Of a DNA stretch of 64,000 bases, positions 18,277 through 64,000 are shown piece by piece. This stretch comes from Phoronis australis (taxonomy: Eukaryota > Animalia > Phoronida): positions 287,982 through 351,981 of the forward strand of contig NMRA01000268.1 in NCBI GenBank assembly GCA_002633005.1, written 5' to 3'. Under the pieces are notes generated by a model. It saw only the letters and a program-made list of their open reading frames with translations. It was not told where the DNA came from and did no database searches. Positions within the stretch are counted from its first letter, which is position 1, and the number at the start of each line of letters is the position of its first letter. The translations under genes and the position numbers were made by a program.

Positions 18277-18428
18277 TGTTGTAGATGTGCTTCCGGTGAA
18301 TTATATGAGCCTCTGTTAGCTACTCGCTAACGGGCAATTGCCTATTAGCTGAATGGTTAGCACGCTTGCCGGTTTTATGGGGGTCGCGGGTTCGATCCCC
18401 GAGTCGGGTGATCTCCGCTATTACTACA
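18277..18428 (+). mobile_element. Solo LTR of the tRNA-like TRIM
   Basis: 152 bp, TGTTGTAG...TACTACA, reverse complement of the array LTRs; 4-bp TSD GTTT on both sides. Confidence 0.92.
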
Positions 18429-18596
18429 GTTTGTTGAAACCTTGTTTTGTGTAAACTTATTGAGTTTTATGTTAGCTATGGAGGGCTGAAATGAAGCACC
18501 CGTGGAATTTCTAGTCGGGAGTGTCATACCTTGTAGTATTATATGTAGTGTATTGGGGACGATCAGAAGCTGAGGAGGCCTGTGCCTTGCCCGGCC

Positions 18597-18672
18597 CTTG
18601 CCGGTTTTATGGCCATGGCCATGGGGGTCGCTGGTTCGATACCCGTGTCGGGTAATCTCGGCTATTACTACA
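18597..18672 (+). mobile_element. Degenerate 3' half LTR of the same TRIM
   Basis: cttgccggttttatgg...ggttcgatacccgtgtcgggtaatctcggctattactaca matches the LTR 3' half with a small insertion. Confidence 0.8.
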
Positions 18673-26785: not shown

Positions 26786-27560
26786 ATGCCACACTGTTGC
26801 TGCGTACCAGAATGTACATCGGCTCACGCACGCTTTGGGAGTACCTTTGCATCGCTTTCCGATGGATGACACACTTAATTCGCCGTACTTGGCTCGTTCG
26901 TGTGAAGAACGCAGCGTTACCTGTCCACGCAACGTACAAAGCAGTGAAGAATTACCGTGTGTGCGGCAAGCAATTTCTGCCCTCCGGTTACGAAAGGGAT
27001 TTGTACTCTGAACTGATGAAGGTCCCTGCGAAACAACGCCTGAAGAAGGATGCCATTCTGTCTGTGTTGATTCCCGGCAGTGCCCCGTCGCCACCCCCGA
27101 GAAGTGCGTTTTTAAAGCGAGAAGCCTCGCGAGCTGTGGCCAGTACAGTGACTGGAGCCAGTGGAGGCACTTCATCTACTGTCACCCATGCCTCCGAATG
27201 TACCCCAGAGCGTGCAATTCCTGGAACCAGTAGTGATTGCCCTGTGCTGTTTTCTCCAGCCCAGAGCCTCTAAGCAGCCCTGCAACGATACTGAGTAGTG
27301 GGAGTGATTACAGGCCCAGTTCGACACCCAGTGAAGAGGACAGTTTGTCGTTCAGTGAACAGATCGGTGAGCCAAACTTTGATAAGTTTATCGTGGACTT
27401 GTCTATTTAGAAGGTGCCAGGTGTGTGGCGAGGGAGTCACACGACACGATGTAAGCAGTTTGGGTGCTCAGGTCACCATCCAGTGGGAGTGTGTCGCGGG
27501 ACACTCTGGCAAGTGGGACAGTTGTTCCTCTGTCCGTGGTATGCCGGAGGTCCACTTAAC
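26786..27560 (+). pseudogene. Frameshifted THAP-domain transposase N-terminus
   Basis: Across frames: MPHCCCVPEC...LHRFP...RRTWL...RVCGKQF...RLKKDAI (THAP pattern, His replaced by Gln), then CQVC...WECVAGH..WDS; no DDE core remains. Confidence 0.75.
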
Positions 27561-27862
27561 CATGTCCAGTAGTGGCTTGGCCTCGTCGAACTCTGAACAG
27601 CACAAGCATTCCATTGAGGTAGGCATAACAACGCACACAGTGCATTTGCACCAAGATGTGTCACCACGTCTGTCCTCAGTAGCCGCCTCGTTTCTCTCAA
27701 CAGCTGCCTGTGCCTGTGCGTACTCTGCCTCGTTATACTCGGGCTCAAACATGTACCCACCCACTGAATGTCCGTGAAAAAATTCCTCGTCACCACTGCT
27801 GTGAACAAGGTCTCCGTCACTCACACTACTGTCACTGTGATACGGGTCACCGACTCCAGCCA
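27560..27862 (-). pseudogene. Truncated KolX-like / P2X7-ballast-like cysteine-rich ORF
   Basis: YMFEP...RRGDTSWCKCTVCVVMPTSMECLCCSE fits the WCxCxxC...ECxCCxE zinc motif of P2X7-ballast-like proteins. Confidence 0.75.
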
Positions 27863-28751
27863 TTTTCAGCTTACAACACACTAAACAATCCCTAAATCCA
27901 ACGTAGTTGAGTTCTCTACTAACCTATCTTGCCGCAGAATACTCGCCGATGAAAAGTGGTGGCGACAATTGTTGAAAAACAGCACAAAACAAAAGTAGAT
28001 AGAATAGATTCGCACGGTAAAGTCAACGCAAAACCAAGTGGCGGGAAACGCTTCCCTCCTAAAAACGTCACTTCCGGAGTAGCGGACGAGTAATTAATAA
28101 AGTTACGAAAAGCTGTAATTAAATGGAAAATATGTCTAGGATAACCAACCCACCTTATTTTGGCTCAAAATGACATGGAAAAAGGTTGCCTTTGCCTTTA
28201 AAGTGTCGGAAAAAAACAGTCGTCTTCCAACGTCTGCTTTCATATTTCACTTTGAAATTCCTGCACCATCCATAATACCGATTAGGGTTTTTTGTGTACT
28301 TTGCCTGATGTTTTCTCACCAGGTCTAACAAATGATATGCTCCCCGTCCCTACACTAGGTCACTTAGTAACTATCACTACAATCCTTGCCTTCTCCAGAA
28401 TAATTGCCAGTTCCATTAATACCTTGTCATGTTGCCACCTATATCTACCCTGCGACAGAGCTGTCCTGATAACATGTCTCAGTGGACACCTGTTCTCTGT
28501 CAGACCCCATCTCATCTGCACAAGTTAGACAGTGTTTGTAATAGGTCGTACACGGACCTAAGTAAAACCTGTATTTTGAATGGTTCCATTCTCCATAGTT
28601 CAGACCTCGTTAACTTCCTGCTGTCTGTCCTTGTCCAAGTGCCCTGGACTCTTCTTCGCACCTTCTAATAGCCCGTTGCACCATTTGTCTTCTTGCCATT
28701 TTTCAGTAGCTTTCAAAAGACTTACATTGTGTATTTTTCTCTGTTATGCAG

Positions 28752-29790: not shown

Positions 29791-31765
29791 TTTTTATGCG
29801 CCCACATATTTATATGTGGACGCATTATGCCGTCATCTCCGTCCGTCCGTCTGTACGGGCGGCGTCCGTCCGGCGTCTGGTGTCCGGCGTCCGCTGCTCT
29901 TTCTCCAAAACCCTTTGACATATGTTCATGAAATTTGGCACATATGTTCCATTTATGAATGGGACGGCATGTGCGAACTTTCGGACGGATCCGACTACCG
30001 GTGTGCCCCCTAGTGGCAATTTTAGTTTTTTACGCTTACCTTTGTATCTTCAAAAGTCCTGAACGGATTTTCATGAAATTTGGTATTAGGCACCTATTAG
30101 TGAGGTGACGCTATCCTGCCGTTTTCAGATGGATTCGACATAGTTTGCGCCACCTAGTGGCCATTTTTAATGTTTTCGAGTCTGTTTTTGTGCGTCCACC
30201 CCTCTATCAACCAAACTGCTCAAAGAATGATTGTGAAAATTGGCATGTTTATGCTTACTATGTAGAGGACGGTTGACCATGATTTTCCGATGATTTCGAC
30301 CACTGTGGCGCCTCCTAGTGGCAGTTTTGTTTTTTTTGCGCCTATGGCTGTAACTCCTAAACCGTTCACAGGATCGTTAGGAAATTGTGTAAGTATATTT
30401 ATATGATGTTAACAACGGAAGATGACGACTTTTGGATGGATCCGACTACCAGTGTGCCCCCTAGTGGCAATTGTAATTTTTTTACGCTTACCTTTGTATC
30501 TTCAAAAGTTTTGAACGGATTTTCATGAAATTTGGTATGTAGGCACCTATTAGTGAGATGACGCTATCCTCCCGTTTTCAGATGGATTCAACATAGTTTG
30601 CGCCACCTAATGGCCATTTTTAGTGTTTTCGAGTCTGTTTTTGTGTGTCCACCCCTCTATCAACCAAACCGCTCGAAGGATGATTGTGAAAATTGGCATG
30701 TATATGCTTACTATGTAGAGGACGGTTGACGATGATTTTCAGACGATTTGGACTACTGTGGCGCCTCCTAGAGGCAGTTTTGTTTTTTTTGCGCCTTTGG
30801 CTGTATCTCCTAAACCGTTCGCAGGATCTTTACGAAATTTAATAAGTGTGTACATATTATGTTAAAAACAGACGATGACGACTTTTGGACGGATCCGCCT
30901 ACCAGTGTTCCCCCTAGTGGCAATTTTATTTTTTTACGTTTACCTCTGTATCTTCACAAGTCCTTAATGGATTTTCATGAAATTTGGTATATAGGCACCT
31001 ATTAGTGCGATGACGCTATCCTCCCGTTTTCGGATGGATTCGACCTAGTTTGCGACACCCAGTGGCCATTTTTACTGTTTTTGAGTCTGTTTTTTGGCGT
31101 CCACCCCTCTATCAACCAAACCGCTATAAGTATGATTGTGAAAATTGGCATGTATGTTCTTACTATGAAGAGGACGGTTGACGCTGAATTTCCCATGACT
31201 TTGATTACTGTGGCGCCTCCTAGTGGCAGTTTTTTTTTGCGCCCATGGCTGTATCTCCTAAACCGTTTGCAGGATCTTTACTAAATTTAGCAAGTGTATT
31301 TATGTGATGTTGACAACGGACGATGACGACTTTAGGATGATTCTGACTACCGGTATGCCTCTAGTGGCAATTTTAGTATTTTACATTGACCTCTGTATTT
31401 TCATAGGTCTTCAGGTGTATACTTTGTGTTACTTCGTGACTATGAAGGAAAAGTTCCAAGTAGAAATTTGTTTCTGGCATTCTAATGCTGTGCTAATCTC
31501 GTATGTTGGTAAATTTGTTTTTAATTCTATGTTTCTGTGGTGCTTTAAGCAACTGATGTATAGGATGTGCTTGTATTATGAAGATCACTCACATTTTGCC
31601 CCTAGCCTATTGAGGAGACAATGACCATGCCTTTCCATTTTGCAAAGTAAAACATACTACATATATGCCCTCTACTGGTCACTTTATGGTACCAATAAAC
31701 AACCCTAGAAGGATACCGTATGCGGTGCAATTGTGGGCACATTTCAACGCTCTGCGTTGCTCTTG
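29791..31765 (+). mobile_element. HINE-like element, copy 2, with about 452-bp internal higher-order repeat
   Basis: Same terminal structures as copy 1; repeat units restart near 29986, 30438 and 30890. Confidence 0.85.
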
Positions 31766-38677: not shown

Positions 38678-39730
38678 TTTTTATGCGCCCACATATTTAT
38701 ATGTGGACGCATTATGCCGTCATCTCTGTCCGTCCGTCCGTCCGGGCGGCGTCCGCTGCTCTATCTCCAAAACCCTTTGACATACGTTCATGAAATTTGG
38801 CACATATGTTCCATTCCTGGGACGGCATGTGCGAACTTTTGGACGGATTCGACTACTGGTGTGCCCCCTAGTGGCAATTTTAGTTTTGTACGCTTACCTT
38901 TGTATCTTCAAAAGTCCTGAACGGATTTTCATGAAATTTGGTATGTAGGCACCTATTAGTGAGATGACGCTATCTTCCCGTTTTCAGATAGATTCGACAT
39001 AGTTTGCGCCACCTAGTGAGTCTGTATTTTTGCGTCCACCCCTCTATCAATCAAACCGCTCAAAGGATGATTGTGAAAATTGCTGTGTATGTTCTTACTA
39101 TAAGGAAGACAGCTGACAATGATTTTCAGACGATTTGGACTACTGTGGCGCCTCTTAGTGGCAGTTTTGTTTTTTTTTTCGCCCAATGCTGTATCTCCCA
39201 AACCGTTTGCAGGATCTTTACTAAATTTAGCAAGTGTATTTATGTGATGTTGACAACAGACGATGACGACTTTAGGATGATTCTGACTACCGATATGCCT
39301 CTAGTGGCAATTTTAGTATTTGCCTCTAGTGGCAATTTTAGTATTTTACATTGACCTCTGTATTTTCATAGGTCTTCAGGTGTATACTTAGTGTTACTTC
39401 GTGACTATGAAGGAAAAGTTCCAAGTAGAAATTTGTTTCTGGCATTCTAATGCTGTTCTAATCTCGTATGTTGGTAAATTTGTTTTTAATTCTATGTTTC
39501 TGTAGTGCTTTAAGCAACTGGTGTATAGGATGTGCTTGTATTATGAAGATTACTCACATTTTGCCCCTAGCCTATTGAGGAGATAATGACTATGCCTTTC
39601 CATTTTGCTAAGTACAACATACTACATATATGCCCTCTACTGGCCACTTTATGGTACCACTAAACAACCCTAGAGGGATACCGTATGCGGTGCAATTGTG
39701 GGCGCATTTCAACGCTCTGCGTTGCTCTTG
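38678..39730 (+). mobile_element. HINE-like element, copy 3 (one internal unit)
   Basis: Same termini; highly similar to copy 2, including its 3' unique segment. Confidence 0.85.
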
Positions 39731-44767: not shown

Positions 44768-45036
44768 CTAGTACATCATGATGCCGTCAATATTTTTATC
44801 AGTCATGGATGCCTTATAACTAACAGGACGGAAACGAGTGCCGGCCAACATGACAAAGATGATATTGATTGCAAAGCAGCCACTGGCTCCCACTACTAGC
44901 CAGAAAGAATAGCCGAAGTAAGTGCGACCATCCGACGTCCAAGAATCCTTTTGTTCATCCTCGGTCAGAACATTGGTTTTTAAGTCCACGTAGTACAGTA
45001 CAGTGAACATAATGACAGAGAGAAGCGTGAACAGGC
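44768..45036 (-). CDS. CLRN: Clarin terminal exon; spliced CDS about 810 nt, 269 aa
   Basis: TM3, FGYSFWLV motif, TM4 and C-terminal DGIMMY-stop typical of clarins; catttcag acceptor in phase 1. Confidence 0.92.
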
Positions 45037-45431
45037 CTGAAATGACAGGTTAGTAAACAATCAAAAATCAATTTCATAAGACTTTCTAGTTTCAGAAAAT
45101 ATGTACTTCTATGGAGCTAAAATCTATAGTTTTAAAGATATGTTGCTGAATACGCAGACTAGTCAGTATGCCCTACATAAACCTATGCCACAGACATAAA
45201 CAAGGTCACCGTAAAAAATTCAACAACTTCGAATTAAAATAAGTTTGCAAATGAAAACCAGCAGTAGAAGCAATCAGTGAGATCTCCACCATGCATAGAA
45301 TAGTCATCGAACATTAGTAAGGTTCATTAGCTCAGCAGCTTTTTTAGATGTTTCTAAAAATGGTATCATTCATGACTTTATCAACTGCAAATACTTGAGT
45401 TATCCTGCCTGTAAGATAACTGAAAATGTAA

Positions 45432-45920
45432 TACCCCCCGTCACACCAGAGGCGCGGTGCCCCTACGGTTTTTGGTCAAAACTGCCATCACCATAGTGAC
45501 ACCACCAGTAGTGTTTCATAGTTTTCCTCTACCTGTCACACATGTGTTTTTCTTCGCGCCACGGGATCACCATAGGGTCGCCAGTCTATGTTTTCAGAGA
45601 TTGCACGGCGGTTGTACTGCGGAAGCACGGCGGTGATGGAGGTGCTACTGCAATCCTTGTACAGCGCCATGGCAGTCATGAAGGTGTCGTGGCGAACCCA
45701 CTGCGGATTGGCTCAACCCGTGGTGGCACTGCGAAAGTTTTAAACATGTTCAAAGTTTCCGCGTGCCACCGCGAAGGTCCGCGGTTTCTACAAATTTTCC
45801 GCGGTGCTAAAGCGATCAATGACGCAACCACTGTGGAACCATGGCGATCGTGGCGGTGCCAGTGTGGTTTATGCTGTACAAGCACCGCAGTGGCACCGCA
45901 CCTACGGTGTGACGGGGGTA
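45432..45920. mobile_element. Harbinger/PIF-like MITE
   Basis: TIR TACCCCC(C)GTCACACC, 3-bp TSD TAA on both sides, GC-rich interior. Confidence 0.78.
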
Positions 45921-45957
45921 TAAATAATAAGTCCAGTCTATTAAAAGTAATTAAACA

Positions 45958-47200
45958 CAAGAGCAACGCGGAGCGTTAAAATGCACATACGAATGCATCG
46001 CAAATGGTGTGCTTTTAGAGTACAGTATTTATTTGTATCATAAAAATGGCCACTAGATGATGCAAAAACGTACAATCAATCCAAAAACGGGAACATGCCA
46101 TATTTCATAAAAATCTGTCAAGGAACTTCAGAGAAACAAAGGAAAACAGAGAACAAAATGAAATTGCCATTTGTGGGCACAGCGTCCGTTCCATCCGCCT
46201 GAAAGTCGTTGTCTGTTATTTTCATATAAATTCACTTACTAAATTTAATAAAGATCCTGCAGTGGGTTTTGGAGATACAGCTATAGGCACAAAATAAAAT
46301 AAAACAAAACTACCATTAGGAGGCGCCACAGTAGTCAGTCACCATCATCAAACATCCTCTTCACACTGAAAACATATATGCCAATTTTCAAAACCATCCC
46401 TAGAATGATTTGGTTGATCGAGGAGTGGACGTCAAGAACAAGATTTGAAAACACCAAAAATGGCCACCAGGTGGCGCAAAATACTGCGATTCCATCCAAA
46501 AACAGGATGATAGTGTCACCTCACCAATAGATGCCTAAATTCAAAATTTTATGAAAATCTGTTGAGGACCTTTGAAGATACAGACTGGTAAACTTAAAAA
46601 ACTAAAATTGCCACTAGGGGGCACACCAGTAGTCAGATCCATCTGAAAGTCGTCGTCGTCGTTCATTGTCATCATCGTATAAATACACTTACTAAATTTA
46701 GTCAAGATCCTGCGAACGGTTTAGGGGATATAGCCATAGGCGCAAAAATCCAAAAAACTGCCACTAGGAGGTGTCACAGTAGTCAAAGTCGTCGGAAAAT
46801 CATCGTCATCCATCCAGTTCATAGGAAGAACATACAAGCCAATTTTCACAATCATCCTTTGAGCAGTTTGGTTCGGGGTGGACTCGAAAACAGAGAAAAT
46901 GGCGTCAAATCCATCTGAAAACCGGAGGATAGCACCATCTCACTAATAGGTGCCTATATACCAAATTTTATGAAAATCCGTTCTGGACTTTTGAAGATAC
47001 AGAGGTAAACGTAAGAAACTAAAATTGCCACTATGGGGTACACCGGTAGTCGGATCCGTCCAAAAGTTCACGCATGTCGTCCCATCCACAGAAGGAACAC
47101 GTATGCAAAATTTCAATAACATACATTACGACGTTTTGGAAATAGAGCAGCAGACGCCAGACGGACGGAGATGACGGCATAATATGTGGACGCATAAAAA
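45958..47200 (-). mobile_element. HINE-like element, copy 4 (inverted, in a clarin intron)
   Basis: Reverse-complement match to copy 1 termini and internal repeats. Confidence 0.82.
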
Positions 47201-47330
47201 TGCTCAAGCTACTCGTGGTGACTAGTTCATGCCTTGCACAGGTTTGAATTCAACAAAGATAATGTAGGCAATAACAACAACAAATAGCAAGATGTGTGCC
47301 CTTAATTAGCCAGACTATGAAGATACTTAC

Positions 47331-47525
47331 AAGCTAGGGTATTCCACACGTATAACCCTGTGGGGCCTGTAATAGTCTCAATTGGACGCGTTGCCAGGTT
47401 GATGATTGCCAAGAATGAGCCAACCAAACCCCATACTATACCAAGGGCAGCGAACACAATGGTGCATACCCATAGCCCAAAGTTCAACAGACCAACATTT
47501 GAAGCAGCCGTGGCCTGGTCCTCGA
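47331..47525 (-). CDS. CLRN: Clarin exon 3 (TM2 and loop)
   Basis: GLLNFGLWVCTIVFAALGIVWGLVGSFLAIINLATRPIETITGPTGLYVWN, containing the clarin P.ETi.GP.GLY.WN motif; catttcag acceptor, T|gtaagt donor. Confidence 0.92.
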
Positions 47526-49075
47526 CTGAAATGAGACGTATGAAACAGTGAGATGAGGTATCGGGTACAGATGACTGGTGTGTGGACCAAGCAAGCCCCG
47601 GCAGAGTGAAGGGTGCAAGTCGCGATCTAAGGCAGCAACGAGGATAGCCATGGACCTGGAACACATAGAGATGCACACTGGCACTATACATACAAGCAAC
47701 AGAAATGAGGATAGCCTGGAACCAAGTAATGCACTGGTACTATACACACAGGCTGTAGATAAAGATGGGTAGAACAGACAGTGGTGTGCAATCAGTGATG
47801 GAAGACAGTGTGTGTGGAGTGAATGTGAATAGTATTTAACACACGTCTTGCTTTCCATATCTCTGCTAATTGACTGTTAGCACATAGACCACCAACTTAC
47901 ACAAAGCTGCGATGTCTGTTACTCCTTAGAGGTGGTGCCTGTTGAATTAACCCATCTTACTTCTGGTGTTTACGTCTACTGACTATGGTTTGTGCTGTTA
48001 GAGCTTGAATTTTGCACTTCCTGAATTAATGTCGAAATTACTCATGACACCAAGAATTCTACTACTGAAAGATGGTTGAATGGCCTTTCAAGGCCGAAAT
48101 GCTTTCTTTCATATTGCTCGGAAGTACAATAGGTACCAGAATTTCTTGTCCCAATACAGTAACGAAAAGCTAAGATTAGCACTTCCACGCGAAATTTATG
48201 AGAAAATATCAGAGCTCCAAAGCCTTGATCTATGATGTAGTGAAGCCCAGCACAGAGCCATGTTTAAAAATTTTTAGCCATGTTTGAAGTGCCATGGCTT
48301 TTCAGCTCTACATTACATTTTAGTGCGTTTCAAGTAGAATGGATCCGTCATGAACCAAATAAAAATCACACTAATGCGAAATCACACATTCCTTCAAGGT
48401 ATCTGGTTAGTTTGGAATACTAATAGCCAACTCTAAGCTTGAGCTTGGCCAGCAGTTGTGGAGTTGGATAGATGTTCAATAGAGTACTGGTTCAAAGGTT
48501 TCAGCTAAAGAAGCCACTGTGTTAATATAGCACAAGGCTAAAGAGCAGCATGGAAGTTGAGTGCCATTGACTAAGACAGGAAAGGATATTGAGTCGTCAG
48601 TCTACCAACAGGTGGCACACAAAGTGGAAGGTACCAGTACAAGAGAGAAGAGTAATATTCAACACAGATAAAAAAGTCTACGTTAAACAAGTTGTTAGGT
48701 AAGTTATAGGTAATAAGATTGAGTGAAAAATGCAGTTAACCTCGAACGTAATAAAAATGTTTCTCCACAATTCAATCACGCCAAACCAAATGCAATAGAA
48801 AAAGCTCTCACTGGTAGATCACGTTAATAAGAGAACAAAGAAACAAAGGCAATACAAACAGATAGAACAAAATTAATTTTAATACAGATAAATGCAGTAG
48901 TTAAAAGTCATACCAGAAAGTAAAAGAAAATCCCAGGACAAACTATCCCTTAAAATTTAGAAACTAAATGTATAGGATTCAAATGTCAGAAAAGTACAGA
49001 AAACAAAAGAATCGTATTAGTTTTGTTCTGCAGCTTAACAGGCAAGTTTGTCCATAGGATTAGGTTGTTAGAAAC

Positions 49076-49186
49076 CTGAGCTGTTTGCTTCCAAAGTATT
49101 AAGGATGCCTTCCAATTCCTTTATACGCTCATCTTCTGAGGTCAGCCCACTCCAGCCACACAGATTGTTGCCAGCATCACAAACAA
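49076..49186 (-). CDS. CLRN: Clarin exon 2, symmetric 111-nt exon in extracellular loop 1 (possible cassette)
   Basis: VCDAGNNLCGWSGLTSEDERIKELEGILNTLEANSS; acceptor ttctcaaacag, weak donor G|gtttct; phase 1-1 fits both neighbours. Confidence 0.65.
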
Positions 49187-50219
49187 CTGTTTGAGAATAA
49201 AACAGAACAGGCATGCAAACAGTGATGAGAAATGAGTGAAACAGTAAAAAACTAAACTCAATGACATACAGAAACAGAACTGTGGAACGTGCATTGAGGA
49301 AAACGAGGTACATTGAGACATTAAGACAAATTTTTCGACCAGGGCACACCAGTGTTGAACAGTTCATACTCGTTGCATGTTTTTGATTTACTGAAACAAT
49401 AAATATATAAAGCATGCTAAAAGCAGCTATAAACCTATCTTCCATCATAGAAATCAACCTTTGATTTAGATCCCTTGCTGTTATGAAATTGGTCTCAAAA
49501 TAGTTCCTTAGTCAAATTTGAGGTGATTTCAAGACATCATAAGAAATGACACTTTGCTATGCTCTGAAAATAAGCTCAGCAATTTGGCTTGTCATTGCGT
49601 GTCATAGTATGAGCAAGTATGGTCACAAAAAGTAAAGAATTGTCAGTTCTTTGCAAACACAGATGTCACTCATCATCCGAGTAAGAAACAAACTGAAATC
49701 ACCTTTACAGCAGATAGTGGTGGTCTATATCAAAGGTTCTTGGACAGATCTAAAGCTGCTTTGATACCTTTTTTTAATTTGACAAATTAACAGGAAATTT
49801 GGCTTGTTATGTCTTAGACTGGTGCAGAGTATATTCAGTCAGAGAATTTTTGAGGCTCCATAGGGTGGCATCATGCTGCTTTAATGATTTTGAAGTTGTA
49901 TTTTTGTGGTGCAGTTCATAACAAAAACAGCAGATTCTTGTTCTACGCTTACTTTTATACAGAATTTTACAACAATCTCCTCATTACAATTTTTGACATC
50001 TCAATGCACCCAACTTTCATGTACTCCATGTTACAGCATGTGGTCTGTGCCCACAGAGAATGAAAAGAAACAATTGACAGGAACTCAACTACAACAGGAT
50101 TGTTCCCAATTGTCCAGACAGTTTTGATACAAGGTATATATTTCTCTGCAAGATTCAAACACAACATAACAGAAAAGGAGAAACTTTGCTCAAACTTGAT
50201 CAATAAAGACATTATATAC

Positions 50220-50388
50220 GGTACTAGTACATATATACAAAAATTATATACTAGTACATATATACATACTAGTACATATATACATATAAACTAGTACATA
50301 CATACATATATACTAGTACATACATACATATATACTAGTACATATATACATATATACTAGTACATACATACATATATACTAGTACATC
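50220..50388. repeat. Low-complexity tandem repeat, about 18-22-bp unit (tactagtacatatatacata)
   Basis: Directly visible repeated units. Confidence 0.88.
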
Positions 50389-52332
50389 AGGAAACAACAC
50401 ATACACATCATTAATTTGAGCACTAGCAGAAAAAATGAAAGAAGTGACAAGAAGATTTAAGTGTAGAGTGGCATCCATGAAAGCATGATTTTAACCATGA
50501 GTTGAAATTAGGCATACATGCTGTTATTGGCTTTGAAATTGAGAATCTAGCACTCAATAGAACTAAAAATAAAGTTATGTTGAGCACTGTTAACATAATA
50601 TGACTATTACCTTGAGACACCCCATTTCAGTCAACGGCGAGTGTCGAATGGTCTAATTTATTTTGTTTCAAAATAAGACAAGTTAACACTTCTTATTTTT
50701 CTATGTTTGTACTTTGGAGGAAATGGAGCTCATAGAGATTAGCTTTGGGAAATAATAAACCACTTCATTCTTGTTTTATCTCACTTTAAGTAGGCAATTT
50801 TTGCTCGGCCAAAGCAGCGCTCAATATAAGTTTAAGCATATGTAAGTTTATCGATTCTGGCTTTCGCAGTCATGCTGTGAAAGTATGGCATGCTGTTACA
50901 CTGAAACTGACCATTTAGATTATGGTAAAAGTACTTCAGTTCGGGACACAATATAGCAGACAAGTGAAATTTCATTTTGCGGTATCACAGTTCTCAAACA
51001 GACTATCATCAAGTTTTCCGGATATTATATTTTAGCTTGGCTACTGCAGCTTAATTTCCACAGTATAACTATCACAAATGACATCTGGTACTCACAACAA
51101 TGTAGTGAACCACTGAAAAATACAGAGACCACAATTTATTAGCAATTATTTGTGTTCAAAACTGAAAAAATTAAAATGCGGAAGATTTCGCAGACCTAGG
51201 TATAAATTCTAAAAGTGGACAAGAGAAAATAAACCAGAGGATTGCCAGAACAATGATTATTTGAGAAAAGAATTGTTTGCAATGATTCTGAAAAGCAAAA
51301 TTAGTCAATTTACGGTACATGAAAAATCCAAAAATATTTAGTGTTTTGGTAAAATGCCTATTACCTTGGAAATCAGTTTCAAATGGCATTTGTCGAATAT
51401 TTGATTTAATTTTGAGCCATCAGCGTAACAAAATCAAGTTACTTAATTAATAAGGACAGTTAACACTGACTTCTTGTTTTTCATGAATACTGANTGTACT
51501 TTGGAGGAAATGGAGCTCATAGAGATTAGCTTTGGGAAATAATAAACCACTTCATTCTTATTTTATCTCACTTTAAGTTGGCAATTTTTGCTCGGCCAAA
51601 GCAGCGCTCAATATAAGTTTAAGCATTGTAAGTTTATCGATTCTGGCTTTCGCAGTCATGCTGTGAAAGTATGGCATGCTGTTACACTGAAACTGACCAT
51701 TTAGAATACGGTAAAAGTACTTCAGTTCGGGACACAACATAGCAGACAAGTGAAATTTCATTTTGCGGTATCACAGTTCTCAAACAGACTATCATCAAGT
51801 TTTCAGGATATTATATTTTAGCTTGGCTACTGCAGCTTAATTTCCACAGTATAACTATCACAAATGACATCTGGTACTCACAACAATGTAGTGAACCACT
51901 GAAAAATACAGAGACCACAATTTATTAGCAATTATTTGTGTTCAAAACTGAAAAAAATTAAAATACGGAAGATTTCGCAGACCCAGGTATAAATTCTAAA
52001 AGTGGACAAGAGAAAATAAACCAGAGGATTGCCAGAACAATGATTATTTGAGAAAAGAATTGTTTGCGATGATTCTGAAAAGCAAAATTAGTCAATTTAC
52101 GTACATGAAAAATCCAAAAATATTTAGTGTTTTGGTAAAATGCCTATTATCTTGGAAATCAGTTTCAAATGGCATCTGTCGAATATTTGATTTAATTTTG
52201 AGCCATCAGCGTAACAAAATCAAGTTACTTAATAATGACAGTTAACACTGACTTCTTGTTTTTCATGAATACTGAGCTTGAAATGGAGCTCAATTAGTTT
52301 CAGGTATGTTTGGCCTTATCAATCACTTTTAA

Positions 52333-52676
52333 AAGGACATGCAATAATCAGGTTAACGACCAAAAAAGATTTCGGGATTATTGTTGGATGGGATGGACTT
52401 CTTTAAGTTATTAGTCATAACCAGAGCTACAAAACCAAAAAATTCACGTTTTTTGTGTTTTTATAACAAATGCCCGGTTCTCACCGATGTCTGCCAGACA
52501 ATCACTGAAATCAAGGTGGTGACTTTATCAATTGAATATGTTTAAAATACTCTACCATTTATCGAGTGAGGTTTAGTTCCACCAACTTAGCCGAAAACCG
52601 ACTGTCGGAGTTGCAGGTTCCATTCCACATTGACGCTGACCTCAGAAATATCAATTTTCTCACTAATAATGTCCCT
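52333..52676. mobile_element. Possible Kolobok-type MITE
   Basis: TTAA-AAGGACAT ... ATGTCCCT-TTAA termini. Confidence 0.45.
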
Positions 52677-54176
52677 TTAACTTTCTTGTTTATTTTACTT
52701 GAAAGTTGGTCACAGTGCTGAGATCACAAAATAGTAGATACATACATAAAGTAAATACATGATAGGAGTAGAAGCTAAACCTATTTCAAAAGATCCAAGA
52801 TTTACAAAAAATGATCTAATATGTATACACTAAAGTCACAGCTAGGTGAACTAAGCACAGGGCAATGATAGATCCTTCAACTCTACCCAGGGTGCAACAT
52901 AATGAGCTGCAGGTTGCATCTATGACCTGAAATTTGGAAATGTGAGCTAAGATTTTAGACAACTCGTTATAGTCACTCTGGTGCAAATTGGGCACTCCAA
53001 CTCCAGCGAGCAGAGTAATTGTTGTATCTCCTGAAAATGACCAACAATGTTTTTTTCTATTCTGTAGTCACCACGCTTGATCAACTTGGCACCTGTCACT
53101 ATGTGAGTGCAAGCTGCATTTCGGAACTGCGAGCTGGGATTTAGGCCAGGTGGAAAAAAATGACCATACTGTCAAGGGATGCTACAAGTTGTTGTACTGA
53201 CAGACGAACTGCTCAATGGCTCCAGATGGTGACCAACATCTGTAGTCATTTTAGCTAAATTCAGACAATCATTAATAAGGGCCCCTGCACTGACCGATGA
53301 ATTAACACAGAGAGCACTGACCGTTGAACTTACTGAGTAATAACCAAGTCAATGACTGTTTCACACAGGTTCAACAGCCTTTAGTGCAGAAAGCGCAATT
53401 TTCTAATAATCAATAAAAATAGCAAAACCTTCTATCCAAGGAGAAAGGGGTTGTCACTTGGAGAGGCACATTCCGTTGAGATATAGGGCACAGAACAAAC
53501 GAAACACAACAAGCTTAGTCCACTGTCTCAAATACCAGTAAACTTCACTTTCCCGCAAAAATATTGAGTAAGTCAATCGCGTGGTGGATATCTCACCTGT
53601 TCGATTTCTCAAGCCCAGATCTTTACAGAGTCCAGGGCAAATGGGCTGCCTGAATGCTTGATACATTAGTTATTGATATATTATGCGACATTAATCAACA
53701 AGAATCTGTTCAAAGGTCTTTTAAACACGTTTTGCTAATTTTTAGACTTGCTGAAGAGAATGAACTGAATGAGTCGAAAAGCGTAGATAATTCATACATG
53801 CTCAGGACCACAGTCGAAGTGCGGTGAAAATGCATAAACAAAAAACAAATTCAAAAGTGTAAAGTATGGTTTAGTAGTATTTTTCATCACGAATTTGAAT
53901 AAAATATCAAAAGTGACCTCCGTCTCAAAGTTACGAAGTTGGTTGTGTTTTTACAACTGAAAACAACTAGGCTGAAGTAAAGTTTTATTAGTGGTCAATT
54001 GACAATGTACACAGATCATACTATGGGGATATTTATGTATTCGGATCTTATGCTGATAACTATACTGAAATCTTTTGTGCGCTACAGGACCCTTTGCTTT
54101 TTAAAATGCTGTGCGTTCCATCTTTACTTCACCAGGCTCTGCTGGGGGTATATATCTGTGATAAGCCACCCTAACA

Positions 54177-54390
54177 CCTTTCTTATATTGCGAGTAGGAG
54201 ATGGAAGCATATCAATAAGCCATATACAGTTTATCCTTTAATAACAACCCTTTCTTATAATGCGAGTAGGAGATGGAAGCATATCAATAAGCCATATACT
54301 GTTTATCCTTTAATAACAACCCTTTCTTATAATGCGAGTAGGAGATGGAAGCATATCAATAAGCCATATACTGTTTATCCTTTAATAACA
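54177..54390. repeat. 71-bp tandem repeat, 3 copies, ending at an N gap
   Basis: cctttcttataatgcgagtaggagatggaagcatatc... repeated; only one diverged unit in the duplicate block near 55372. Confidence 0.85.
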
Positions 54391-56654
54391 NGTTGTTGTA
54401 CTGACAGACGAACTGCTCAATGGCTCCAGATGGTGACCAACATCTGTAGTCATTTTAGCTAAATTCAGACAATCATTAATAAGGGCCCCTGTGCTGACGG
54501 ATGAATTAACACACAGAGCACTGACCGTTGAACTTACTGAGTAATAAACAAGTCAATGACACAGGTTCAACAGCCTTTAGTACAGAAAGCGCAATTTTCT
54601 AATAATCAATGAAAATAGCAAAACCTTCTATCCAAGGAGAAAGGGGTTGTCACTTGGAGAGGCACATTCCGTGGAGATATAGGGCCCAGAACAAACGAAA
54701 CACAACAAGCTTAGTCCACTGTCTCAAATACCAGTAAACTTCACTTTCCCGCAAAAATATTGAGTAAGTCAATCTCGTGGTGAATATCTCACCTGTTCGA
54801 TTTCTCAAGCCCAGATCTTTACAGAGTCCAGGGAAAATGGGCTGCCTGAATGCTTGATACATTAGTTATTGATATATTATGCGACATTAATCAACAAGAA
54901 TCTGTTCAAAGGTCTTTTAAACACGTTTTGCTAATTTTTAGACTTGCTGAAGAGAATGAACTGAATGAGTCGAAAAGCGTAAATAATTCATACATGCTCA
55001 GGACCAGAGTCGAAGTGCGGTGAAAATGCATAAACAAAAAACAAATTCAAAAGTGTAAAGTATGGTTTAGTAGTATTTTTCATCACGAATTTGAATAAAA
55101 TATCAAAAGTGACCTCCGTCTCAAAGTTAAGAAGTTGGTTGTGTTTTTACAACTGAAAACAACTAGGCTGAAGTAAAGTTTTATTAGTGGTCAATTGACA
55201 ATGTACACAGATCATACTATGGGGATATTTATGTATTCGGATCTTATGCTGATAACTATACTGAAATCTTTTGTGCGCTACAGGACCCTTTGCTTTGTAA
55301 AATGCTGTGCTTTCCACCTTTACTTCACCAGGCTCTGCTGGGGGTATATATCTGTGATAAGCCACCCTAACACCTTTCTTATATTGCGAGTACGAGATGG
55401 CCGCATATGAACAAGCCATATACTGTTTATCCTTTAATAACAACCAATTGCATTTCATGTATCAAACAATTATTCAATAAAATGTTTGGCAAAGAAAGAA
55501 AATAAATTAAAATATATTGAGTGCGGCACTTGTGGACCTTAATTAATACAAAATGAAATACGATGGACAGAAACAATTGTTCACATCATAAAAAAGAGTG
55601 GAAATTGTTTTTATTTTATGAAACCTGAAATATTCACTTCTGTACCCAACCATGTTTACTTACAGACCAGTAGTTATACAATCAACTGATGAGCATATTA
55701 AACAGTAGTGGTAAGAATAGGAAAGTTTCTCAGAATCGACAACAGGTGATGCCGTCTTACGCTACCAGACAAAATTTGTGTGCAGCCGAGGTGGCTTCGC
55801 CTCATTCGTGTGACCTTCAAAACTTTTTTAGCAACACCAAACAAATATTTCTGTGCAGCCTCACTTACATTAATTTTAATTAAATTCAGCTATATAGAAG
55901 AATCAATTTCACTGTATTGAAATAAATTTTGATTCCATGTTTTTCTTTAGCAATGATATCGGCGACAAACCGTTGAATCGTTGCTTCACTATTACACAGG
56001 GAAAAAGAACCTATTGATTTTCATCAAACCTGTTGCTAAGCTAAGCTTTTAACATATGTCAACATGACTGACAAACAGTTGAACTACAGGGTGGGCAGAG
56101 GAAGGAAATGTTTTGTAAATTCATAACTGATTCAGCACTGAGCCTGTAACTACCTGTTGTTATAGCTAGGTGGGGTCCATTCCAAGTAACTGGGTAGGTG
56201 TTGCAGAACATCTAAAATCCTGATTTTTAATGCAATGTCTATATGGGGTTTTACATCGTGTCGCATATATGCAGCGCCCTACTCACTAGCCTACATCGTA
56301 ATACATCCAATGATGCTAACGGTACTGAAGATGAATGCCACAAATTACAAACGTGTTTGCTCACGTCCTTTCATCATAGTGCAGTGTGCCGCTATATTAA
56401 AAAGTACAGACACAAGTTTACATGTCTACGTAACACTATGCTAAAAAACAACCGTTTCCTTCTTCAGTCCAATGAAAATCCCGCCTGTGTTAAACCTGGG
56501 AGTATTGGTACTATGTTAAACTTAGAAGAAATTGTAAACACTCAAGGAATTATGGGTAATTCTTTACCTGTCTCACACACGATATGGTGGACAAGTGAAT
56601 TTCATTTTGTCAAATTTCTCAATAAAAATGAAGATTAAGAAAAATTCAATAACT

Positions 56655-56865
56655 TGTTAGCCTGTTTGTATAGCGTAGATGTGATAAAACAACAGTGTTT
56701 AGCTTGTTCGTACTGTGTAGCTGTCATAAAACAACAGTGTTTAGCCTGTTTGTACTGTGTAGTTGTCATAAAACAAAAGTGTTTAGCTTATTTATACTAT
56801 GTAGATGTCATAAAACAACAGTATTTAGCTTGTTTGTACTGTCTAGATGTCATAAAACAACATTT
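56655..56865. repeat. 42-bp tandem repeat, about 5 copies
   Basis: tgtttagcttgtttgtactgtgtagatgtcataaaacaacag units; explains the repetitive ORFs at 56654 and 56695. Confidence 0.9.
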
Positions 56866-57139
56866 GGTTATGTTTCTATAAATTACAGCAAGGTAACCTG
56901 CCTTAGAAAATACTTGTGCAAAAACAGCTGGATCACCAGTACCCTAATGCAATGTGCAGACACATGTCCTCAACCTTAACTGCCATTATTCATGAGAAAC
57001 ATGTAATACCAGCATTATAACATCAAACAATGTAAAGTATGTTCATATCCTGGTACTAATCACAGGTGACTGGACAGACCAATTATTATTTCCTTTTTAG
57101 TAGCAACCAAGGGGTCACACGCATATAAGATTTCAAAAC

Positions 57140-58045
57140 CTGTGTTTGAATAACTAGCATGTATTTCAAGATTAGTTAAACGACATCAATTATTTAAAGC
57201 TCAGTAACATTTAGAAATCATTTCTTTTTAATACAAGCATGACAATGCGTAGCCTTGGTACAAAGCTGTATAAAAATATACAGCTTTGCACCGATGTGGG
57301 TAAAAAAGTGGCAAGATAAAATCTGACACAAAATTGGTGTCATTAAAAACTACAGTCTTCCTTGAGTAAACTAAATTATTTAACGGTGTTGGCAAAATTG
57401 GCGTTCTACCGTTATTCTGCTGCTAAAGTTGTGAAGCGATCTTTAGCGACGGATTTCGGCGCCGTGAAATTTTTAGAATTTTGATACCGAAAAATCAAAT
57501 TTCAGAAGAAATTTTGCTGCTGCCAAGCTATCATCATCACCCGAGAGATGTCGCAAAAATTTAGGAAATGGCGCGTGTGAGTGACACGAGCGTACTGTTT
57601 TCAAAACGACGAAATACTTTTCATTGTTAGAAAAGGCGGAGAGTTACACAAGAAAATGACGTTTATTGCATTGTTTTTCACTTAAACGGCTGTAACGGGA
57701 AAGGCGAGTGTTGGTTGACTCCCAGATTTTGCATGCACACCGTCCGGTTTTTAGCTTTACATGTTGATACAAGTTTCACGGCACGGTGACGAGCAGAACT
57801 ACCCAGGCTGTGTGCAATTTCGGGGTCTACAGAAGAAATACACACAGTGGGACCTAGCTGTATTTTGACGACAGTCTTCATACAGCTAGCTGGCTGGCTA
57901 GACAATGCGCAAAACATTAGAATATCATAAAGATATATGAAATGGCAACTCAAAATGTGCTTAGCCTCGAGAATCATTTATATTTGTTAGTTGCGTGGTA
58001 AATTTTTGCCAAGCGTGAGAAACGTTAAATGATAGTTTGCCTTAA
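57140..58045 (-). repeat. Second diverged copy of the 23264-24070 repeat family, ending at a TTAA
   Basis: Reverse-complement homology as above; terminus GATAGTTTGCC-TTAA. Confidence 0.75.
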
Positions 58046-58757
58046 AAATCTTGACATTTGGAGACAACAAGTGAAATATTGCACAAATATAGTGGCATCG
58101 TAAAATTGAAAATGTATAGAAGCGATTTTAGTTTCCAAATTGTAACTCAAGCGCCAATCTTGACCAGGATGCAACATAATCGATACAGTTAAACATAATA
58201 AATCATTTTGACAGCATAACTCTCACTATATAAGGTATACCACCACCTGTGACCAGGTTTAATACTTAATCCCTTAGCACAGATCAATATGCCAAGAATT
58301 TGGATGTTTGGGCTGAGATGATCGCACTCACAGGTTAACATCTCCACCCGTTAAACCAATAAAGATAACTACTCAGTGGTATCAAGTTCACTGAGCCGCT
58401 TTCACGCAGCTATGGTGAATAATCTGCATTCAGTGTTATAGTAAAATCTATCAAACAGTTTATTTGCTCATAAATATATTCTTGAAATTTTTTAAAAAGT
58501 GCAATTATGACAATTATTTTTGTTTGACATCGGTTAGAGTAGTCAAAATATTTCCTACCAAACTAAAATGGACCAGTAATGTAATTTAAACAATTTGAAT
58601 GTTGTAACAACAAAGATGGTAAGCTCACAATACAAACATGCAAAGAGCAATGCCAATCAAGTGTTTGGAAAAACATCTGGCATCTTCTACAAATGGTACA
58701 TTAACCAAATAAAAGAGCTATTATCACTTACTTTTATATTCTCCTCCTACTACAGTC

Positions 58758-58893
58758 AAGCGACCCATACATCATATTGCATGTTTTGGCACACTTTGCA
58801 TTATGGAAATACTATGGATGTCGTAAGCGACCCATACATCATATTGCATGTTTTGGCACACTTTGCATTATGGAAATACTATGGATGTCGTAA
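58758..58893. repeat. 66-bp perfect tandem duplication
   Basis: aagcgacccatacatcatattgcatg...ggatgtcgt present twice. Confidence 0.9.
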
Positions 58894-60421
58894 ATTCTTT
58901 ACAGAAACAAGACTTAGCTTTACGTAATTGCTGTTACAAAATCTTAACACCGAAAGCCATTGCTCTGACTGACCTTTAAAAAACACTACTTGTAAACCCT
59001 AGCCTTCGCACACAACACATTGCAGAAAACTTACTAACCATGTTATGGCCATAGTTTTTTGGTCACCAAATTGAAGCTTGTATGTTTGATATATTTACTG
59101 CTACAACATAGCTCTGTTCAAATGATGCAACGCCATAAAAACGAGAAAGTGTGGAACAAATATTGATGTCATTTATTTGTCAGATTATGCTTCATGTAAG
59201 AATTTATAAAAACATGCGATATTTAGGTCTGCCGATATTTAGTTCCGTCCAATATTTAGGTCCGTCCGATACTTAAGTAAATAATCTGTACAGCACACAA
59301 CAGAAAATTCTTAGTACTAATTTATTAGACAAAAACAAGTACAAACTCGGCACAAACACATTTGAATTGATTGACATTTTGTTGATACATAATCAGTCCA
59401 ATTTTAATTTTTAAAAATGCAATTATCATAATGCATTAGTTTCAGGGTTTGAATTTTACTTTCTTGCATATTTAACTGATAATACACTGAATTATTTCTA
59501 AACAAAACCAAACTCTGCATTGATGAGTTTGGTTAAAAGTGCAAAATTTGGTTGTTACTATTTGATCACTATTACTTCTTTGTCAAAAATCAAGTAAAGA
59601 CTGTACTCAACGCAGTATGCAAGAAGACTGGCAACATATGGGCTGTGAAAAATGTGGATGTTTTTGTGGCATAAATCAGTTCTGTAATAAGTATCTAACA
59701 TGCTGAGATCAAGTAAATCACTTCAATCAAGCATATGTTTTAACTTAAAGTGCAACATGTACATCATAGTCTACCAACCTGTAACCAGAATCTATGTAGA
59801 AAAGGCCATTGACATGTCTAATCTTCTTTCTTTTTTGAACTTCAGTATAATAAACTACGTAAAAATGGATTTCATCAACCATTTAATAAACTGGACATGC
59901 TGAAGTTATGTAACCTTGTTAATCTCACTTGTACGATGCATCGGTAGCATCCGACTTCTGCTACAAGTCGGATGCGTAGACATTAAAACACCACGCTCGT
60001 GACAGACATGTCATTTGCTTGATTTTTATTTCGATAAACAATGTCTTTCGAGAGATTTCAACAACTTCTCTAAAGCAAAATTTGCTCAGATACCAGCACC
60101 CTATTGCTAAAATACTTAAACCATATAACGCAGTGAAACCAACTCCTCTACTTTGTAGTGGATGATGTACAAACATGCTGAAAAAACCCTGTTGATTGAA
60201 GCATTGAAATTGGCCACCAGATGGTGTCCCATTTTGTAGCCTCAACGGTGATGCATATGAACACTATACAAAATGAAAATCAGAACAATGTCACAGTATT
60301 TGATTAGTATACTCAAGGAAATGATGCTTTCAACAACTTTAATTTTGCAACAGATACTATTTTGTTAACTTTTTAGTCAACATCATTCAGAAGGTGTAAA
60401 TTTGTATTTGTAACCCAACTT

Positions 60422-60567
60422 CGGGTAAAAGTGGAGTAAACGGGCCCCTCTTGAGAATGGCTGCCAGGAACCAGTTTTCACTGAGTAATGACAATGTCTG
60501 TTATCCAGAGTAAACTGGTTCCTGGTAGCCATTTTGAAGAGGGACCGATTTGATCCACTTGTACCCG
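60422..60567. repeat. Fold-back inverted repeat with about 56-bp arms
   Basis: cgggtaaaagtgga...aatggctgccaggaaccagttt pairs with aaactggttcctggtagccatt...tccacttgtacccg. Confidence 0.72.
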
Positions 60568-60628
60568 GCTTTGTACCAAAGCTAAGTTGTCATACGAAGG
60601 TAAGTAATAGACTCTGGTGTCAGTGTAA

Positions 60629-61939
60629 TGTAGTAATAGCCGAGATTACCCGACCCGGGGATCGAACCAGCGACCCCCATAAAACCGGAAAGCGTGCTAA
60701 CCATTCAGCTTATAGGCAATTGCCCGTTAGCGAGTAGCTAACAGAGGCTCATATAATTCACCGGAAGCACATCTACAACATTCCCCCCTTTCCTACGGAA
60801 TGGGCACGCGACAGGAAGGTGAACACCAGGATGTCTCGCATACAGGTCATCAACGTCCCTTGGTACCTTTACCACCACAACACAGGTGAACACAAGGTCG
60901 TCTCTCATACAGGTCCTTGACTCCTGGAACCTTCCACGCGCGCTGTCCCGAGGTCCGTGGGTACTAGTTGGCAGTGCTTCATCGGTAGATCATCCGTTTG
61001 CCGACTACGCCATTTGTTGTATTACCCGAGATTACCCGACCCGGGGATCGAACCCGCGACCCCCATAAAACCGGCAAGCGTGCTAACCATTCAGCTAATA
61101 GGCAATTGCCCGTTAGCGAGTAGCTAACAGAGGCTCATATAATTCACCGGAAGCACATCTACAACATTCACACCTTTCCTACGGAACGGGCACGCGACAG
61201 GAAGGTGAACACCAGGATGTCTCGCATACAGGTCATCAACGTCCCTTGGTACCTTTACCACCACAACACAGGTGAACACAAGGTCGTCTCTCATACAGGT
61301 CCTTGACTCCTGGAACCTTCCACGCGCGCTGTCCCGAGGTCCGTGGGTACTAGTTGGCAGTGCTTCATCGGTAGATCATCCGTTTGCCGACTACGCCATT
61401 TGTAGTAATAGCCGAGATTACCCGACCCGGGGATCGAACCCGCGACCCCCATAAAACCGGCAAGCGTGCTAACCATTCAGCTAATAGGCAATTGCCCGTT
61501 AGCGAGTAGCTAACAGAGGCTCATATAATTCACCGGAAGCACATCTACAACATTCCCCCCTTTCCTACGGAACGGGCACGCGACAGGAAGGTGAACACCA
61601 GGATGTCTCGCATACAGGTCATCAACGTCCCTTGGTACCTTTACCACCACAACACAGGTGAACACAAGGTCGTCTCTCATACAGGTCCTTGACTCCTGGA
61701 ACCTTCCACGCGCGCTGTCCCGAGGTCCGTGGGTACTAGTTGGCAGTGCTTCATCGGTAGATCATCCGTTTGCCGACTACGCCATTTGTAGTAATAGCCG
61801 AGATTACCCGACCCGGGGATCGAACCAGCCACCCCCCATAAAACCAGCAAGCGTGCTAACCATTCAGCTAATAGGCAATTGCCCGTTAGCGAGTAGCTAA
61901 CAGAGGCTCATATAATTCACCGGAAGCACATCCACAACA
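60629..61939 (-). mobile_element. Tandem TRIM (non-autonomous LTR retrotransposon) with tRNA-like LTRs, Helenus-like: 4 LTRs and 3 internal domains
   Basis: LTRs at 60629-60780, 61015-61166, 61401-61552 and 61787-61939 with TG...CA ends; 234-bp internal domains, 386-bp period; PBS TGGCGTAGTCGGCA; PPT GGAAAGGGGGGAA; TSD GTAA at 60625-60628 and 61940-61943. Confidence 0.93.
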
Positions 61940-62092
61940 GTAAAAACAGCATTCATCTAGCTTTCCATAAATGTGTACACAGGGGCATCTTACATGAAAA
62001 ATACTAAATACAGTCTGCCATATTGTAGGCCTAAATAGCTAACGAGACAAGGGCAAGGGCAAGGCATGGCATTTTTGTTTCCTTATACTTAC

Positions 62093-62327
62093 TCCATATT
62101 TCTTTTTCTCGCCCCTTTGTCCCTAAGCCAACATCAAACTCTTTTCCTCCGTGAAATAGACCAAAATGGAGCGTTCCATTTCCTTCATTCTTATTATCTT
62201 TCATCTTCACAGGCGTCGACTGGATCCAGTACTCAGTAGCCAGAGAAACCGATATCAACGCGATCCCAGCAACGCAAAAAATAAATGTCATAGTAATAAA
62301 AAAGCGTTTCTTTTTGTCCATCATCAT
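62093..62327 (-). CDS. CLRN: Clarin-family tetraspan membrane protein, exon 1
   Basis: N-terminal TM helix followed by SLATEYW and GTLHFGLFHG...G.G, the clarin/claudin-like first loop signature; donor A|gtaagt, phase 1. Confidence 0.88.
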
Positions 62328-63064: not shown

Positions 63065-63446
63065 TGTAGTAATAGCCGAGATCACCCGACCCGGGGATCG
63101 AACCCGCGACCCCCATAAAACCAGCAAGCGTGCTAACCATTCAGCTAATACGCAATTGTCCGTTAGCGAGTAGCTAACAGAGGCTCATATAATTCACCGG
63201 AAGCACATCTACAACATTCCTCCCTTTCCTACGGAACGGGCACGCGACAGGAAGGTGAACACCAGGATGTCTCGCATACAGGTCATCAACGTCCCTTGGT
63301 ACCTTTACCACCACAACACAGGTGAACACAAGGTCGTCTCTCATACAGGTCCTTGACTCCTGGAACCTTCCACGCGCGCTGTCCCGAGGTCCGTGGGTAC
63401 TAGTTGGCAGTGGTTCATCGGTAGATCATCCGTTTGCCGACTACGC
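63065..63446 (-). mobile_element. Truncated copy of the same TRIM (3' LTR plus internal domain, broken in the PBS)
   Basis: LTR 63065-63216 and internal 63217-63446 nearly identical to the array units; 5' LTR absent. Confidence 0.9.
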
Positions 63447-64000
63447 TAGGGACGTGACAAAGTCTTATCTCAACGCTGATTGGCTTTTCCCAGATGTTGC
63501 GTAATGGCGATTATCGATTAGACAGCCATTGTTTCACGGTGGCTATAGTATTTCCACTCTCTCTCCTCCAGAAACCAAGAAAACAGGGAACCACATTATT
63601 GATGACGTAGACAGTAAATTCTTCTAATCATACGTCATTTTCTTTGTTGTGTTTTCATTCTTGTTAAAGCATGTGACTGGTGAGAAGTTGGGGGAATTTT
63701 TCGCTCCTGTTTGACAGCTTGCATTTTGAAAGGTAAGCTATTGATTCTTATGAAATGTAATATGTTTTCTTTTTTAATATCTCTTGCAACTGTTCACCAA
63801 GTTTCATTCCAATCAATTCACCGTATCATGATCTGCTAACTCCGTGAAAGTTAAGACCCGAGGCAGGCATTCTCGCTGACCAGCCATAACGGACCAGTGT
63901 ATCAGCATTGCCGTTTATGGTTAACAATTGCTCTTAAATTAGGTAGATTGACTAGTTTATGTAAATTAATAGCAGAATTGATCAATTTGGATGAAGTTCC

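Follow-up and report, generated by a model that had tools for sequence, protein, structure and literature searches.

What kind of element lies at positions 60629..61939 of this 64,000-nucleotide stretch of Phoronis australis DNA (the window), and how would an LTR element with a tRNA-like promoter inside its LTRs set the start and the stop of its RNA? We read it, with a probability of about 0.72, as a tandem, non-coding, miniature LTR element of the Helenus type that is primed by tRNA-Ser, likely transcribed by Pol III and likely mobilized by Gypsy proteins. A sequence-only reading of the locus had described a miniature non-coding element with TG...CA LTRs of 152 bp, a PBS, a PPT and the target site duplication (TSD) GTAA. 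All of these parts were found and no long open frame was present, but the tandem structure had been missed, and the LTR length holds for three LTRs and fails for the 5' LTR.

The element is a tandem array on the minus strand, composed of four LTRs and three internal regions (L4I3) that follow each other head-to-tail with a period of 386 and 97% matches, in the order LTR-internal-LTR-internal-LTR-internal-LTR from 61939 down to 60629. The two GTAA copies flank it at 60625..60628 and 61940..61943. The 5' LTR (61787..61939, 153 nt) has one extra G and the change G112T, inner LTR C (61401..61552, 152 nt) serves as the reference for LTR numbering, inner LTR B (61015..61166, 152 nt) has three private changes within the final 11 nt, and the 3' LTR (60629..60780, 152 nt) carries T70A in box A together with G112T; all four have TG...CA ends. 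Internal regions 1 (61553..61786), 2 (61167..61400) and 3 (60781..61014) are 234 nt each, and the second has two G>T changes in its polypurine tract. One two-LTR unit thus measures 152+234+152 = 538 nt. No coding frame was found in the array, the longest stop-free stretch in the doubled unit being 83 codons.

Each internal region begins with a 14-nt PBS complementary to the 3' end of tRNA-Ser, placed 2 nt (AA) after the LTR (61771..61784; also 61385-61398 and 60999-61012), and has at its end a polypurine tract adjoining the next LTR (60781..60794; also 61553-61566 and 61167-61180), all on the minus strand. The PBS occurs four times in the window against 0.14 expected, and it agrees at 14/14 letters with the human tRNA-Ser(UGA) 3' end that two published methods sections print. 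Since the PBS fits a genuine tRNA-Ser 3' end, self-priming by the tRNA-like part of the LTR was ruled out. When tRNA genes with the PBS complement at their end were sought, 120 sequence matches appeared, and ARAGORN called a tRNA at 0/121 loci. In internal region 1, a 32-nt direct repeat with 67-nt spacing and 87.5% likeness was also seen at 61589-61687; similar repeats occur in several Helenus internal regions.

The LTRs of the array differ from one another by 3-8 letters. Between the outer two there are 6 differences, which means that the insertion has some age. Both outer LTRs have T112 and both inner LTRs have G112, and each state is common in the family. Together with the TSD, the outer pair is consistent with a single integration. 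The inner units would have come from another variant, through a multimeric template or through later recombination. The three changes at the end of LTR B (61015-61026) give it terminal inverted repeats that match perfectly over 6 bp. The unit with LTR B and the polypurine tract with two G>T changes looks like a distinct variant.

A regular tandem of this kind might instead be a satellite, a SINE-derived tandem repeat or an assembly artefact. Its period of 386 with 97% matches would suit such an origin, and so would the result that no single read or contig bridged the full array among the matches of X2 and X8-X10. X2 contigs nevertheless entered both outer junctions (by 26 and 37 letters), the LTR units are not identical, and the PBS, the PPT, the TG...CA ends, the TSD, a solo LTR whose empty site was seen, and copies with two LTRs at other places are all features of an LTR element. 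As to class, this explanation is refuted, and we consider it hardly credible in any form. A tRNA SINE (SINE2) was likewise ruled out by the TG...CA ends, the PBS, the PPT and the precise 4-bp TSD.

The LTR element can be followed outside the array, and its anatomy, its boundaries, its 4-bp duplication against an empty site and its many dispersed copies are direct observations. A solo LTR of the same family stands at 18277..18428 on the plus strand with the TSD GTTT. The empty-site allele, in which exactly 156 = 152+4 bases are skipped and 4 letters fit either side of the joint, was seen in one contig of X2, in 7 X8 reads and in 7 X9 reads. The TSD is 4 bp in 2/2 complete insertions of the window. 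Loose contig ends gathered precisely where the LTR starts and stops, with mixed flanks (in X2, 72 contigs before 18277 and 24 behind 18428), and further contigs carried two LTRs, 224 and 248 letters apart. The summed X2 contig depth at the LTR centre was ~3e5 compared with 36-47 for unique-flank contigs, which is not a copy number but a rough sign that this Helenus-like family is present in high copy number.

Two further relatives lie in the window. The copy at 63065..63448 (minus strand) consists of an internal region and a 3' LTR and is broken off at the start of the PBS, where an unrelated sequence starting with TAGGG (plus strand) cuts in; its 5' LTR may lie beyond the window end. The copy stands ~740 bases upstream of the start codon of the clarin gene. 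The TAGGG start resembles some hAT ends, and no partner end of that sequence (63447-64000) was found within the window. The LTR-like relative at 18532..18672 (plus strand) is diverged: its 3' 52 nt are 90% identical and keep the T4 motif, its 5' half is different and lacks the palindrome described below, and no matching TSD was seen, so that it is possibly a second family. The solo LTR itself is nested in another repeat (18433-18478), and the X2 depth of ~75,000 to its right indicates that a second very high-copy family begins near 18440. Scans of genome-contig and viral-contig collections gave no matches to the element, and a single metagenome match with unrelated flanks was taken as chance.

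Do the LTRs carry a Pol III promoter, or a tRNA gene? In LTR C, box A occupies LTR 70-80 (61473..61483) and box B occupies LTR 113-123 (61430..61440), with a TTTT at LTR 97-100 (61453..61456) as the candidate Pol III terminator, all on the minus strand. Boxes A and B at tRNA spacing were matched 5 times in the window, always in this family, whereas the mean in 200 Markov resamples was 0.015, showing that the spaced boxes exceed chance; shuffled LTRs gave such a match in 3/20,000 cases. By the definition of Kojima 2024, the two boxes were present in 5/6 full LTRs of the window. The earlier claim of a degenerate tRNA gene in every LTR fared less well. ARAGORN found no tRNA gene in the LTRs at default settings or with -ps, and at a 70% threshold it assigned three different anticodons or none to the LTRs and also called internal regions. 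An Rfam search of the element at E<=10 returned no tRNA, no 5S and no ribozyme family, so there was no tRNA covariance score, an outcome that the sequence-only reading had named as one that would speak against it; a retrozyme was ruled out by the same search, which gave no hammerhead or other ribozyme family. The quoted A box is intact in 3/4 LTRs and altered by T70A in the 3' LTR, and the CGGG/CCCG T-arm stem is intact in 2/4, being broken in the outer LTRs by G112T, a change that makes up 52% of the X2 depth. Of a tRNA gene, the LTR keeps only the promoter boxes together with remnants of the D- and T-arms, so that the term degenerate tRNA gene says too much.

The boxes had further been expected to be better conserved than the rest of the LTR. 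We listed LTR positions that varied at >=8% in at least one run (23), and dropped 2 that were private to the reference copy, leaving 21. The T4, the palindrome, box A and LTR 113-120 contained none of the 21 (naive P 0.004), in agreement with that expectation, but P was 0.049 for the two boxes alone, and 0.11 when CpG sites were set aside. Position 121, a degenerate place inside the 11-nt box B, varied at 29%. The pattern is suggestive, short of proof, of a promoter that is kept while the tRNA fold decays. We infer Pol III transcription of the array from its letters, as Kojima 2024 (PMC10886601) likewise does for Helenus.

The array lies ~155 bases inside intron 1 of a clarin-like gene that has three exons, shares the array's strand (44771-62327, minus; exons at 62327-62094, ~47510-47330 and ~45045-44771) and is expressed in X8-X10. 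Exon 2 found its best match in Owenia (E 1.5e-18; next 1.6e-14; 9 matches), and exon 1 gave no homologue when searched alone but aligns to the matches of exon 2. Other features of the neighbourhood were recorded as well. For a pantothenate kinase exon, the nearest sequence is from Capitella (74%), and the exon groups with Capitella and Paralvinella at weak support (81/75). A MITE-like inverted repeat at 60422-60567, with 67-nt arms at 81% and an X2 depth of ~1,800 (multi-copy), ends 60 bases from the array. Two facing frames at 26695-27923 are likely the remains of a DNA transposon: one is P2RX7_C-like (E 8.8e-5, just under the cut-off), and the other, for which Pfam gave no hit, we take to be THAP-like. 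A separate tandem with a period of 453 (3.2 copies at 88%) occupies 29977-31403, with related pieces near 39000-39350.

RNA reads on the LTR stretch numbered 576 in X8 and 518 in X9, from 18-19% of each run. With the read strand set by the clarin exon, they were ~2:1 antisense, and 77% and 82% of them, respectively, continued into unlike sequence. No pile-up of read starts or ends was seen among them, at the predicted transcript ends or at any other place; standard RNA-seq may miss short Pol III RNA, so the missing pile-up counts neither for nor against such an RNA. The LTR reads are thus mostly passengers inside host transcripts. This result suits an ordinary Pol II TRIM, driven by a U3 promoter of its own or by host read-through, in which boxes A and B would be the relic of an old SINE insertion. 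The sense orientation in a gene intron, the absent tRNA score and a TATA-like TTATAT at LTR 25-30, ~30 nt ahead of the palindrome, speak for it too. The TATA-like word is nevertheless altered by T26C in 53% of the X2 depth, and the invariant letters of the boxes have no listed variant. The sense strand of the 386-nt unit has one T run, the TTTT at LTR 97-100 (its sole run of >=3 T), against four on the antisense strand, and conservation of the boxes is general among the Helenus families presented in PMC10886601. We therefore regard a Pol II origin as improbable and retain Pol III as the likely polymerase.

A feature absent from the sequence-only reading stands directly before box A. In LTR C, a U3 hairpin with a 6-bp stem and a 5-nt loop (LTR 39-55, 61498..61514) is followed by a perfect 10-nt palindrome, GGCAATTGCC (LTR 57-66, 61487..61496, minus strand, predicted 5' end of the transcript), by three bases, and then by box A. 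A 10-mer palindrome at this place has a chance of ~0.003. The cross-family tally of this module was made by eye from Data S1 of PMC10886601, not blind and on related families, and yields no valid P value. In that set, 54/76 LTRs of non-insect animal Helenus have a palindrome of 8-13 nt, then TTT and box A, nearly always behind a hairpin (vertebrate 18/18, bivalve 33/51, nemertean 3/3, brachiopod 0/3, ctenophore 0/1), and none was seen by eye in the wasp Helenus LTRs of Data S1. In the Phoronis family, TAT follows the palindrome where these relatives have TTT.

In 52/54 of these modules, the two halves pair to the centre with 0-1 unpaired base (the other two have one ambiguous letter and one imperfect pairing), and the even-length palindromes of Data S1 have 16 central tetramers, ten of them Watson-Crick (e.g. 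ATAT, CATG, TTAA, GATC) and six needing G.U. Such varied centres make a protein-binding site unlikely, since the change would not be tolerated; a paired centre makes a simple hairpin unlikely, since a loop needs no complementarity; and G.U without A.C indicates sense RNA as the acting molecule. The shared module, apparently kept self-complementary despite a changing core, is a lead rather than an established signal.

How might these parts work together? Pol III would start near LTR 56, where the palindrome has its 5' edge, ~14 nt ahead of box A. Some of the time it would pass the lone T4 of the 5' LTR and stop at the T4 of a later LTR. This would produce an RNA of ~430 nt whose R is short, about 45 nt, and more read-through would give multimers; with leaky T4 stops, abortive RNAs, unit RNAs and multimers would all be expected. 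The palindrome at both RNA ends may pair them into a panhandle or join two RNAs, and such end pairing could help minus-strand transfer over so short an R. A host tRNA-Ser would prime at the PBS, the PPT would prime the plus strand, and a Gypsy-type integrase would produce the 4-bp duplication; we infer this Gypsy helper for the array, as PMC10886601 likewise does for animal Helenus. LTR-LTR recombination would leave solo LTRs and build or mix arrays. The T4 inside the 5' LTR would shorten many transcripts, which counts against the proposed cycle. T4 is described as a weak terminator that is improved by adjacent RNA structure in yeast (PMC9278858), and degenerate T termination signals are described as leaky (PMC3141230).

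RNA folding was consistent with end pairing. For the predicted 431-nt RNA, which begins at G56 of one LTR and ends at T100 of the following one, the fold had a z of -3.7 with the ends paired; in the modelled panhandle, the 5' palindrome would pair with its 3' copy, and the box A sequence with the arms of the U3 hairpin. The end-pairing probability was 0.99 compared with a mean of 0.47 (max 0.87) over 40 palindrome shuffles, and the internal region alone folded no better than shuffles (z -0.45). Since any palindrome in R gives end pairing, the fold does not count as independent proof that the palindrome functions. A Pol III-transcribed Helenus could also carry the palindrome for a reason other than pairing, as a local termination hairpin in the 3' LTR or as a by-product of fold-back synthesis. 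A local 4-bp fold is possible (-4.9 kcal/mol), RNA hairpins beside short T tracts are described in PMC9278858 as boosting Pol III release, and a pyrimidine-rich 3' half could account for the excess of G.U. The duplex, however, is far more stable (-21.0 kcal/mol), and a hairpin loop needs no complementarity, yet the tallied modules pair to the centre across 16 different central tetramers. We consider a palindrome of this kind unlikely, though less so than a Pol II origin, and prefer a palindrome that pairs RNA ends.

In SINEs, box A lies at about +13 or +14 of the transcript, and in 5S genes, box A lies at +50. From the box A found here, the start is predicted at G56-G57. In both Ajax LTRs of Data S1, the 5S boxes are by eye preceded by the hairpin, the palindrome, TTT and a box A that is tRNA-like, and the start predicted from their 5S box A falls 0-2 nt from the 5' edge of the palindrome; tRNA-type and 5S-type promoters therefore both place the start at this edge. 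Tentatively, and with rather less than even confidence, we propose that most non-insect Helenus, Ajax and the present family are one old lineage sharing the hairpin and palindrome as a cis-module, in which the palindrome would be the minimal core of R that pairs RNA ends or two RNAs, and Ajax would be a Helenus with box B swapped for a 5S promoter. If true, this single-lineage reading revises the proposed multiple origins of Helenus and gives exact transcript ends. The module could explain how an LTR element driven by Pol III sets the start and the stop of its RNA and obtains a usable R. It predicts transcript ends to within a few bases, and LTR-11_DR of zebrafish, with thousands of copies, allows tests. 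The words palindrome, hairpin and dimer are absent from the main text of PMC10886601 (alignment figures apart), and the literature since 2024 on TRIMp3 and on Helenus with Ajax gave no description of the module, although subscription journals could hold one.

Helenus was defined by Kojima 2024 (PMC10886601) as TRIMs with a tRNA-derived LTR, in animals with a 4-bp TSD and a Gypsy-like PBS. According to the same paper, animal Helenus occur in six phyla, with Annelida absent from Table S1, form tandem arrays in zebrafish LTR-11_DR and mostly encode no working tRNA, and their Pol III function is unproven. The assignment to this type, already proposed from the letters, fits: the 538-nt unit is a non-coding TRIM under ~1 kb with two LTRs, the PBS and PPT stand at the 5' and 3' ends of the internal region, and the TSD is 4 bp at 2/2 complete insertions of the window. 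The array is a new family of this published class. Like animal Helenus (TRIMp3), it has LTR boxes without a working tRNA, a PBS, a PPT, a 4-bp TSD, solo LTRs and tandem arrays and, by eye in Data S1, the hairpin-palindrome block ahead of box A. Closest in build are Helenus-1_BaPl, -2_MoPh, -1_PiNo and -1_LiLo (bivalve, nemertean) and the fish LTR-11_DR in PMC10886601. Unlike the catalogued families, its LTR and PBS motifs were unmatched in Data S1 except for the generic box B (motif search of the whole supplement), its tRNA-Ser PBS is not among the PBSs of Fig. S2 of that paper, and it has TAT for TTT after the palindrome and its only T4 between the boxes. It adds a family and a primer tRNA to a class that a single paper describes and on which there is no experimental work.

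Several other systems resemble it in part. Cassandra, a plant TRIM, also has a Pol III promoter in its LTR (here predicted), and according to the summary in PMC10886601 it starts and stops inside the LTR, which leaves an R of 18 nt. It shares tandem arrays and predicted LTR-LTR pairing with the present element, and it has multi-unit transcripts (PMC7215508); it differs in being 5S-derived, in belonging to plants and in having demonstrated Pol III transcription, which is a prediction for the array. The 5S-derived promoter that marks Cassandra and Ajax was not found in the array LTR by Rfam at E<=10, and its boxes are of the tRNA type. Tandem TRIMs are described as common (PMC4717578, PMC6934838, PMC7215508): TA-TRIMs of plants and biv-TRIM of bivalves likewise form LnI(n-1) arrays within one TSD, but as described they have no small-RNA promoter, and biv-TRIM is without a clear PBS. 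The palindromes PAL and CYC5/CYC3 of Ty1, proposed for RNA dimers and end-to-end pairing (PMC4974528), are a functional analogy only, since Ty1 is a coding Copia element whose signals do not lie at the R boundary beside a Pol III promoter. Ajax, the nemertean 5S-type TRIMp3, shares the hairpin, the palindrome and the tRNA-like box A in the LTR, and differs in its 5S promoter in place of box B, its 5-bp TSD and its tRNA-Leu PBS, according to PMC10886601. The module matters more than the locus, as it ties animal Helenus to Ajax and predicts their transcript ends.
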